From a virus, in UHGV virus genome UHGV-0175782: a stretch of 60,645 bases of DNA. One strand, given 5' to 3'. The translations under genes and the position numbers were made by a program. Under the pieces are notes generated by a model. That model did not search any database. It worked only from the letters and a program-made list of their open reading frames with translations, and was not told the origin of the DNA. This document shows, piece after piece, positions 2,730 to 3,250 of the stretch. Numbering within the stretch: position 1 is the stretch's first letter; each line of letters begins with the position of its first letter.

Positions 2730-2745
2730 GCACAACAGGTAAGGG
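2730..2745 (+). repeat. 16-nt direct repeat gcacaacaggtaaggg (copy 1), preceded by a hairpin
   Basis: Identical 16-mer recurs at 3169-3184 directly after the tRNA-Thr 3-prime end; a related aacaggtaag occurs at 3675-3684. Confidence 0.5.
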
Positions 2746-3014
2746 CGCTGGTGTGATTAACCAGATGAACGAGAAGGGGCCATCTGTTGGTCAGCGTCCT
2801 TTCCTGTTGCGTTTTCTTTTCAGCGTAACAGCGGTGCTTAACAGCACTTTGGGTACAGTTCCACGAATTTACGGGTATATCCCGTCATGCTGAAGGCGCT
2901 AATCACGCTGGAAGCCAGGGTTGTGCATCCCCTGTTACCGAATTGCAGCCAGGGCGCGGTGCGCCGAAAAGCATACGGAGGTGGAAGCCCTCGCCGGAGA
3001 CGTACCCGGCAAGT

Positions 3015-3090
3015 GATGGTGTAGCTCAGCGGTTAGAGCGGTTGACTGTTAATCAACGGGTCGATGGTTCAAATCCATCCACCATCGCCA
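3015..3090 (+). tRNA. tRNA-Asn (anticodon GTT)
   Basis: 76-nt cloverleaf by hand folding: acceptor gatggtg/caccatc, D-stem gctc/gagc, anticodon stem gttga/tcaac with loop ctGTTaa, T-arm gatgg-ttcaaat-ccatc, encoded CCA; P1 is known to carry tRNA-Asn. Confidence 0.85.
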
Positions 3091-3092
3091 AT

Positions 3093-3168
3093 GCCGGTTT
3101 AGCTCAGTTGGTAGAGCGCCTGCCTTGTAAGCAGGATGTCAGCGGTTCGAGTCCGTTAATCGGCACCA
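3093..3168 (+). tRNA. tRNA-Thr (anticodon TGT)
   Basis: 76-nt cloverleaf: acceptor gccggtt/aatcggc, anticodon stem cctgc/gcagg with loop ctTGTaa, T-loop ttcgagt, encoded CCA; two nt downstream of tRNA-Asn. Confidence 0.85.
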
Positions 3169-3184
3169 GCACAACAGGTAAGGG
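3169..3184 (+). repeat. 16-nt direct repeat gcacaacaggtaaggg (copy 2)
   Basis: Identical to 2730-2745. Confidence 0.5.
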
Positions 3185-3250
3185 TATTTTGCGACGTCGG
3201 AGATCGCCGAGCTTGGCAGAGGGTTCGAATCCCTACGAAGTACCCTTACC
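3177..3250 (+). other. tRNA-like hairpin remnant: 10-bp outer stem (ggtaagggta / tacccttacc) enclosing a D-arm-like gcga...tcgc and a canonical T-loop GGTTCGAATCC, but no anticodon arm
   Basis: Hand folding; T-loop motif and acceptor-like pairing present, anticodon arm absent; not a functional-looking tRNA. Confidence 0.4.

Follow-up and report, generated by a model that had tools for sequence, protein, structure and literature searches.

A tRNA-like hairpin behind phage tRNA-Thr as a probable member of a widespread hairpin family of enterobacterial phage leaders and tRNA arrays

Described structured RNAs and the hairpin behind tRNA-Thr

The subject of this study is a hairpin, element B, that lies at positions 3169-3257 on the + strand of the UHGV virus genome UHGV-0175782, immediately behind a gene for tRNA-Thr; the window analysed was this whole stretch of 60,645 nucleotides. 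Several described systems come close to it. The phage hairpins recognized by RNase III, such as the T7 R1.1 type and the lambda late sites, resemble its basal helix, here called the handle, in that a roughly two-turn duplex, interrupted by a small internal irregularity, stands between the functional units of a polycistronic transcript, and, as in the family described below, several related copies occur per genome. They differ in that our family carries an exchangeable conserved payload, with at least 43 classes, on a handle whose sequence is common to unrelated phages. The mascRNA of MALAT1 and the t-elements of plant mitochondria share with element B a cloverleaf-like fold with a T-arm that does not decode and lies where the end of a neighbouring RNA has to be formed. 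In contrast to them, the "acceptor" of element B is a 21-bp duplex without a free 5′ leader or CCA, and most members of its family are not tRNA-like. YrlA (RF02553) also has a long bulged basal stem bearing a tRNA-like multi-helix domain, whereas in element B the order of the arms (D-like, mini, T) makes the long stem the acceptor and not the anticodon stem. Species 1 and 2 of the T4 tRNA cluster and GOLLD/ROOL are structured non-coding RNAs of unknown role that are co-transcribed with phage tRNAs. Neither sequence nor models link them to our family, which consists of small modular hairpins and not of large single RNAs. Integron attC sites, finally, are imperfect inverted repeats with an extrahelical base, a variable centre and cassette-like gain and loss, all of which the family shares. 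It differs from them in being selected as RNA (G-U far above A-C), in having no integrase and in core sites that match only partly.

Model searches recovered none of the known families at element B. Nothing meaningful overlapped 3169-3257 when all 4227 models of Rfam 15 were used, and YrlA, C4, transfer-messenger RNA (tmRNA), DicF and self-cleaving ribozymes were each rejected there. The YrlA model matched only the two tRNAs of the locus, at 25.6 bits against a gathering score of 69. In 17 related loci nothing apart from tRNAs reached a gathering score, and an E-value search of 6 loci left the hairpin elements unmatched by any family. The hairpins were also unmatched by the STnc100, AgvB, AsxR and Esr41 models, and only a stretch past a further hairpin of the same leader, element C, was STnc100-like. 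We did not find the hairpin family described in the literature, and literal sequence strings matched no paper. Passages of a 2026 preprint on prophage Pas small RNAs (sRNAs) describe these as terminator-ended and Hfq-type and map STnc100 and several Hfq-type sRNAs to the part of late leaders in which the hairpins lie; in these passages, compared by text and not by sequence, the hairpin family is not described. We conclude that element B is very probably one member of a widespread hairpin family of Enterobacterales phage leaders and tRNA arrays.

Window positions 2400-3800 are 99.9% identical to bacteriophage P1 (NC_005856). The P1 record places the C1-controlled promoters P1ban and P2ban and a "dicF-like region" upstream of the tRNAs and hairpins, and tciA, tciB, tciC, tRNA-Ile(CAT) and ban downstream, all on the + strand. 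Since the region lies between the Pban promoters and tciA-ban on the same strand, it is part of the long untranslated leader of the ban operon. The only open reading frames (ORFs) annotated across this leader, plp and upl, are on the opposite strand. The features on which the following analysis turns are these:

2698-2731, + strand: small hairpin immediately 5′ of element A (minimum free energy, MFE, fold; 13-bp helix of 2698-2712 with 2716-2731)
2730-2745, + strand: first copy of the 16-mer, the 5′ stem strand of element A (exact match)
2730-2812, + strand: element A, a variant of the family hairpin (fold of 2690-2820 at -56 kcal/mol, z = -3.9; 17.4 bits, E = 0.02 with model R1, which was built from element B)
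3015-3090, + strand: tRNA-Asn (GTT) (ARAGORN; Rfam tRNA, 74.5 bits)
3093-3168, + strand: tRNA-Thr (TGT) with encoded CCA (ARAGORN; Rfam tRNA, 72.9 bits)
3169-3184, + strand: second copy of the 16-mer, the 5′ stem strand of element B (exact match)
3169-3257, + strand: element B, family hairpin with a tRNA-like payload (fold, z = -5.2; covariation; model R1, 103.9 bits)
3192-3206, + strand: D-like arm of element B, CGA, loop CGUCGGAGA, UCG (3 bp, 9-nt loop with GG; invariant in 22 sequences, partly forced by the search pattern)
3207-3216, + strand: mini-hairpin in the place of the anticodon arm, CC, loop GAGCUU, GG (alignment and pair counts)
3220-3234, + strand: T-like arm, AGGG, loop UUCGAAU, CCCU (invariant in the alignment of 22)

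The 16-mer GCACAACAGGTAAGGG is found at 2730-2745 and 3169-3184, both times on the + strand, with no third copy in the window and no additional copy when up to two mismatches were allowed. Shuffled sequences gave an expectation of 0.02 copies, and none of 100 shuffles contained two. The exact repeat noted in an earlier, sequence-only reading of this DNA was thereby confirmed, together with its surroundings: the 13-bp hairpin at 2698-2731 precedes the first copy, and the second begins one base past the CCA of tRNA-Thr, as the ARAGORN coordinates (3093-3168) place it. The same reading had drawn a hairpin at 3177-3250 with a 10-bp stem, GGTAAGGGTA/TACCCTTACC (3177-3186 with 3241-3250), which is present but is only the inner part of a longer stem. 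Positions 3170-3191 pair with 3236-3256 over 21 bp with one bulge: CACAAC (3170-3175) pairs with GUUGUG (3251-3256), A3176 is bulged, and 15 more pairs lead inward to G3191-C3236. The MFE of 3169-3260 was -41.6 kcal/mol, with z = -5.2 against shuffles. A long hairpin, 2730-2812, likewise starts with the first copy, and a U-rich tract comes after it. From the extent of the 21-bp stem it follows that the whole 16-mer belongs to a helix and is no free-standing signal, and in the predicted folds it is the 5′ strand at both copies. Its earlier description as a tRNA-flanking signal has therefore to give way to that of a conserved stem strand of a hairpin family, most sampled copies of which have no tRNA in the DNA examined.

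The payload of element B folds into a small cloverleaf with a D-like arm that carries GG, a 2-bp mini-hairpin and a canonical T-arm. The GCGA...TCGC part, the T-loop GGTTCGAATCC and the 12 nt between them are all present as first described, and the tRNA-like layout, with GG in a 9-nt D-like loop, a truncated middle arm and a canonical T-arm, holds. The loop of the mini-hairpin (6-7 nt) is the sole strongly variable stretch of the payload. ARAGORN at default and 90% thresholds reported only the Asn and Thr tRNAs and nothing at element B, and the Rfam tRNA model gave no match at 3169-3257 with E-values up to 10, so that element B is not a bona fide third tRNA. Relaxed tRNA prediction, which had been proposed as a check, was negative at 90% and at 80% gave only a 95-nt "tRNA-Tyr" at 3150-3244 that uses the T-arm of element B and overlaps tRNA-Thr by 19 nt. 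Element B has no 7-bp acceptor with a free 3′ end (discriminator and CCA); the duplex runs on for 21 bp and no CCA follows. Nor does it have a 5-bp anticodon arm with a 7-nt loop, the CC/GG mini-hairpin with its variable loop standing in that place. The T-arm, with a UUCRANY loop and the G53-C61 closing pair, is present at 3220-3234 in 22 sequences, which were collected with a search pattern that required GGTTCGAATCC.

A conserved handle with exchangeable payloads

A search of PLSDB with element B and its 3′ flank (3160-3300) gave 877 plasmid matches, mostly P1-like and non-mobilizable, and 495 of them covered at least 80% of the query; matches limited to the second half of the query represent the flanking spacer and not the hairpin. 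The hairpin alone (query positions 11-102) matched Enterobacter phage BUCT554, a 40-kb Uetakevirus, at 85% identity, and a scan of IMG/VR for the arm sequences found many more copies of the cloverleaf. Some of these sit on wholly different stems, for example CCCACCAAUGAGAGC.../...GCUCUCAUUCGUGGG and AUUGGCGAGGAUACUG.../...CAGCGUCCUCACCAAU. In BUCT554 and in the IMG/VR contigs the copies adjoin upstream terminators or small hairpins instead of a tRNA.

When 22 distinct sequences were aligned, changes on both sides were seen at 13 of the 21 stem pairs. Pairing was possible in 91% of the alignment cells, compared to 31-55% when the partners were slid by 1-3 columns, and the observed covariation score was reached by none of 500 shuffles. 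The search pattern behind this alignment required GGAGATCG as well as the T-loop. Because the invariance of the inner arms is partly imposed by this pattern, it is uninformative on their pairing either way. A second payload class (loci L055 and L056) scored 40-42 bits with model R1 and has the same layout built from different, still complementary arms, namely GCAU, loop AUCUGGGAA, AUGC; GC, loop UUAU, GC; and GCGG, loop UUCGAUU, CCGC.

These results bear on the possibility that element B is a degenerate tRNA gene, a functionless relic that has lost its anticodon arm. Its position in a tRNA cluster would suit a relic, as would the extra tRNAs near it in relatives (Tyr in Ro157, Ser-like in D6) and the use of its T-arm in the 80% ARAGORN call; on the other side, that call runs into tRNA-Thr, default ARAGORN and Rfam are negative, and unrelated phages, as well as contexts without tRNAs, have kept the hairpin with compensatory changes. 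A pseudogene would show no purifying selection and be confined to a single lineage, whereas 13 of 21 pairs are compensatory and copies occur in unrelated phages. The decay proposed in the sequence-only reading is thus contradicted by the persistence of the cloverleaf in unrelated phages, with compensatory stem changes and invariant loops, and we consider a relic very unlikely. Nor is element B a tRNA that decayed in P1 alone; the cloverleaf recurs in unrelated phages. A tRNA origin of the payload is possible.

The handle itself was searched for in IMG/VR with the pattern AACAGGTAAG-N(45-75)-CTTWCCGTTG. Among the matches listed, more than 120 viral contigs carried it, most of them 30-50 kb long, and all loci collected at that stage contained 79 distinct matching sequences. 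The 120 listed scan loci comprised 78 distinct sequences that fell into at least 43 payload classes. The consensus handle reads (C)AC-AAC, a bulged A, GG, a U-U mismatch and then AAGAGCAUUG, paired with CAGUGCUCUU...CC-GUUG. In every class it forms a conserved helix about 20 bp (two turns) long and encloses 35-55 nt that are hypervariable. A T-arm motif was present in 7 of the 43 payload classes against 0.075 expected from shuffles, an enrichment of about 90-fold; the other 36 classes have the same handle without a T-arm. Units of the family usually stand behind an intrinsic terminator or a small hairpin whose loop is purine-rich, and are usually followed by UGGUGAAU and a small hairpin of GCGCA, loop GGCUGA and UGCGC. 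Searches that started from this trailing hairpin found further fully covarying stems, for example CACAAC-UGAAACGG.../...CCGUUUCA-GUUGUG.

BLAST with one family member matched 261 annotated phage records, HK620 and HK629 among them, almost always under "none". The copy in HK620 and HK629 lies in the late-operon leader, between Q/pR′/qut and the holin gene. Other copies are found next to tRNAs: in phAPEC8 a BLAST match, which model R1 does not detect, lies in a tRNA array 10 nt past tRNA-Thr, in phage D6 the hairpin starts just past the end of tRNA-Ser, and in a Klebsiella plasmid a divergent copy adjoins the CCA (22.3 bits with model R1). The extra tRNAs of the relatives, Tyr in Ro157 and Ser-like in D6, include an unusual UGA (Ser) tRNA that was observed in phage D6 (L004, 2607-2693), L007 (2741-2825) and L012 (3376-3460). 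Its acceptor has 8 bp and its T-stem 4 bp, its D-stem and variable arm are long, and the Rfam tRNA-Sec model, with a gathering score of 47, gives it 42-44 bits; a family hairpin comes directly past its CCA.

Phage lambda (J02459, L347) carries a canonical family hairpin at 44,787-44,862, which was found with a second query. It starts about ten bases past the 6S RNA terminator tR′, overlaps the end of "orf-64" and lies upstream of S; a spacer closed by GUUGUGCUG/CAGCACAAC (44,857-44,941) comes next. In species-representative genomes the stem was formed in 48 of 115 pattern matches, and about half of the 48 are in Enterobacterales (Serratia, Klebsiella, Pectobacterium, Pantoea, Rahnella, Kluyvera, Citrobacter, Erwinia, Enterobacter, Escherichia and others). 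The exact lambda copy accounts for 22 of the 48; it was found in unrelated taxa, in several cases on very small contigs of low coverage. These 22 loci, between L238 and L342 (L238, L239, L253, L256, L273, L311 and others), have the lambda flanks as well, and their nominal hosts include Pseudomonas, Psychrobacter, Oceanobacillus, Enterococcus and a Segatella metagenome-assembled genome. They are most simply explained as contamination of public genomes with lambda DNA. The Qin and DLP12 prophages of Escherichia coli K-12 contain no family copy, and K-12 RNase III maps are for this reason uninformative.

Action in RNA and candidate functions

The seven stem positions that lie within the search anchors contained, over 89 distinct sequences, 87 G-U pairs and 6 A-C mismatches, a ratio that would be reversed if the same helix were read from the other strand. 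Of the copies, 51 have a tRNA within 1.5 kb; every one of these is on the strand of that tRNA, and 20 of them directly follow tRNA-Thr(UGU). From the G-U excess and this co-orientation it follows that the structure is selected in RNA, in the direction of the tRNA and operon; the family structure acts in the RNA of the transcribed strand.

A site at the level of DNA, be it a recombinase target (attC-like or other) or a hairpin of single-stranded DNA, might account for an imperfect inverted repeat with a bulged base, a variable centre and cassette indels at its repeats, the more so as GCACAAC and GTTGTGA resemble the integron cores RYYYAAC and GTTRRRY. The likeness is imperfect (6/7 and 5/7), no integrase is associated, and homologous recombination between direct repeats of 15-17 bp accounts for the indels. 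The strand asymmetry, with 87 G-U against 6 A-C and the strict co-orientation with tRNAs, speaks against an attC-like DNA site, which we reject, and we hold any DNA-level function to be highly improbable. Coding by the opposite strand, where element B would be the C-terminus of plp (3139-3516, minus strand), has in its favour the annotation of plp in the P1 record. No Pfam or PHROG family matches Plp, the plp ORF of JL22, a P1 relative, stops short of element B, and neither strand has a conserved reading frame, as the mini-loop differs in length by 1 nt among B-type copies. This indel and the absent family matches lead us to reject plp coding, which is hardly credible. A neutral relic, a recombinase site in DNA and plp coding are thus each contradicted by a test in this analysis. 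Upl matched only uncharacterised PHROG families. Together plp and upl run antisense to elements B, D and C (3139-3708, minus strand), the 3′ part of Plp is not kept in JL22, and both ORFs may be mere by-products of RNA structure encoded opposite them.

A transcribed hairpin could still be a mere spacer, its dense folding protecting the 1.3-kb leader from Rho and exonucleases and its conservation being due to recombination. Folding predicts a chain of strong hairpins throughout 2560-3900, where no ORF has protein-family support, and copies L018 and L135, which are chimeras with mismatched 5′ and 3′ handles, reveal frequent recombination. A passive role would not require the loops of the cloverleaf to be invariant across unrelated phages, or the bulged A and the U-U mismatch to be kept, and we find it improbable.

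The reading that we prefer is that element B is a transcribed structured module acting in cis, likely a processing module, to which the predicted structure lets us give about an even chance. The assignment of the processing to RNase III in particular is tentative and falls short of probable. Most plausibly it is host RNase III that would cut the two-turn duplex that starts one base past the CCA of tRNA-Thr. The cut would detach tRNA-Thr with a short trailer for trimming by exonucleases and would free the downstream tci-ban leader; the upper hairpin would be set free as a compact, tRNA-like RNA whose 3′ overhang is short. A duplex of the kind that RNase III cleaves (about 20 bp or more within a transcript) is present, with 21 bp and one bulge inside the ban operon. 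In the related Qin operon, DicF is made by RNase III and RNase E. RNase III sites have been reported in vivo in the Q-dependent late transcript of lambda (Daniels et al. 1988, as cited in PMC7547250). As the lambda copy of the family lies in this late leader, it provides a lead for RNase III.

Several points weigh against this proposal. The 20-bp hairpin of lambda tR′ is another candidate for the reported lambda sites. In the global MFE fold of the lambda leader the spacer helix takes GUUGUG, and the family hairpin does not fold as one unit. RNase III has little sequence preference, which does not explain the conservation of the handle, the bulged A and the U-U mismatch, and a processing site by itself does not explain 43 conserved payload classes. 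The case for pairing in the inner arms of the cloverleaf is drawn, at the level of sequence, from a single further payload class (L055/L056). In a broader version, Enterobacterales phages, lambda and P1 among them, would have an unrecognised class of modular RNAs in which one host factor reads the common, sequence-conserved two-turn helix, and processing of leader and tRNA-array transcripts would set free dozens of payload RNAs, the cloverleaf included, that serve as exchanged effectors such as decoys or regulators. Such handle-plus-payload RNAs would be a bacterial counterpart of hairpin-encoded small-RNA precursors; this version is at present speculative and rather doubtful.

Cleavage by a different enzyme is proposed if element B is an RNase P "t-element", whose tRNA elbow would recruit RNase P to cut 12 bp from the T-loop, between G3184 and U3185. 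P1 uses RNase P for the maturation of its C4 RNA. The cut predicted from the T-stem plus a 7-bp stem (3184/3185) coincides with the 3′ end of the 16-mer, the canonical T-loop and the GG in the D-like loop are what RNase P would favour, and model R1 gives the true tRNA-Asn a weak 15.4 bits. At the predicted site, however, the stem continues as a duplex where a leader should be single-stranded, and a 3′ RCCA is lacking; neither the tRNA nor the C4 model of Rfam matches element B, and the 36 payload classes that lack a T-arm have the same handle. Taken together, this makes an RNase P t-element unlikely.

The released cloverleaf might instead act in trans as a tRNA mimic, a decoy or sponge for an elbow-binding factor during lytic growth. 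Its target could be, for instance, a modification enzyme, the CCA-adding enzyme or a defence nuclease directed at tRNAs, and other payloads would serve to divert targets of their own. Loops that remain invariant while stems covary fit a mimic, as do the location of the elements in lytic-phase transcripts beside phage tRNAs, a diversity and shuffling of payloads like that of arms-race loci, and T-arm payloads about 90-fold above chance. The majority of payloads are not tRNA-like, and we give the mimic little weight.

RNA modules and cassette exchange in the ban leader

The ban leader of P1 has four family members, in the order A, B, D and C, with folding z-scores from -3.9 to -6.75. Between and behind them are spacer modules and a structured leader of tciA:

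3251-3309, + strand: spacer module closed by GUUGUGA/UCACAAC (BLAST; fold unexceptional, z = -1.25)
3394-3491, + strand: element D, a family hairpin with a different stem, CUACAACGUUGAGAACACUGG... (found via the conserved trailing hairpin; fold, z = -6.75)
3496-3576, + strand: spacer module of two hairpins with complementary loops (loop co-occurrence; fold)
3671-3751, + strand: element C, a canonical family hairpin with the handle AACAGGUAAGAGCAUUC.../...GAAUGCUCUUUCCGUUG (model R1, 28.3 bits, E = 1.7e-5; fold, z = -5.4)
3747-3866, + strand: STnc100-like structured leader directly 5′ of tciA (Rfam STnc100, 33.4 bits, under the gathering score of 47)

In element A the A that is usually bulged is paired, and the payload is not tRNA-like. 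Because the U-rich tract 2812-2820 comes next, it looks like a terminator. The hairpin at 2698-2731 in front of it fills the slot that in other family members is taken by a small hairpin or terminator, and element D has a small hairpin 5′ of it, at 3376-3393. The first spacer and element B compete for GUUGUG, and spacer positions 3253-3300 are kept in Sasha-like, P22-like and SSU5-like phages, as judged by BLAST. In the second spacer, the loops GGCUGA (3501-3506) and UCAGC (3566-3570) of the hairpins 3496-3511 and 3558-3576 are complementary. Of 82 distinct spacer sequences, taken from phage and prophage loci, 54 contain both, and in other phages the variant GGUCGA comes with UCGAC, which suggests, from sequence, a kissing-loop contact.

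The alleles of P1 relatives differ by whole cassettes. JL22 has, besides tRNA-Thr and element B, a spacer and a "type 2" hairpin. In P1, which has element B only, the segment between two copies of CTTACCGTTGTGATGAA is missing; in an E. fergusonii plasmid and phage Ro157, which have the type-2 hairpin only, the segment between two copies of (G)CACAACAGGTAAGGG is missing. The alleles of JL22, P1 and E. fergusonii have their breakpoints at the repeated 16-mer and at CTTACCGTTGTGATGAA. The suggestion that the repeat is a recombination footprint is borne out, the cassettes beginning and ending exactly at repeated stem strands, and the repeated handle strands are portable homology that provides the crossover points for gain and loss. 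The unmatched handles of the chimeras L018 and L135 show that crossovers occur inside payloads too.

Likenesses to other leaders were also seen. P1 2554-2640 (…cgactttgcgg…agaaactga…aaatgcaaacga…) resembles the late leader of HK620 (L129, 2750-2830). The P1 stretch lies past the dicF-like terminator and its HK620 counterpart past the first late-leader hairpin. The Qin dicF-dicB spacer (L231, 19436-19609) and P1 3747-3870 have the motif TGGTGAATGCGGCT(A/G)AGCGCACGCGG in common. By their sequences, the P1 ban leader and lambdoid late leaders appear to be mosaics of the same RNA modules.

Two further comparisons were made. Mimicry of an rRNA operon, suggested by an apparent likeness to boxA and the 5′ end of 23S rRNA, was rejected, since the best match of the P1 leader to rrnB (25.7 bits) did not exceed those of shuffled controls. 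The 3′ handle strand CAGUGCUCUUU of most family members (e.g. 3731-3745 in element C) is identical at 10 of 11 positions to the boxA region of the rrnB leader, CACUGCUCUUU(AACAA); the boxA-like strand is absent from element B of P1, and the overall similarity to rrnB is that of chance. A likeness to the R1 seed region of the host sRNA GcvB was likewise not accepted: CTTACCGTTGTGATGAAGTG (3245-3264) is identical at 17 of 20 positions, which 1 of 40 shuffles equalled, a marginal result. CACAAC, the complement of the GcvB-like stretch, resembles GcvB target sites.

Lambda and P1, both heavily studied, thus bear in a well-mapped region a conserved structured RNA that is unannotated and outside Rfam, and plp and upl of P1 and orf-64 of lambda, which overlap structured RNA, may not be genes. 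Should the handle prove to be a processing site, the release of phage tRNAs that encode their CCA from long untranslated leaders would be explained. Payloads set free as stable RNAs, if that is what happens, would form a large and shuffled repertoire of phage small RNAs in lytic growth, some of them tRNA mimics.

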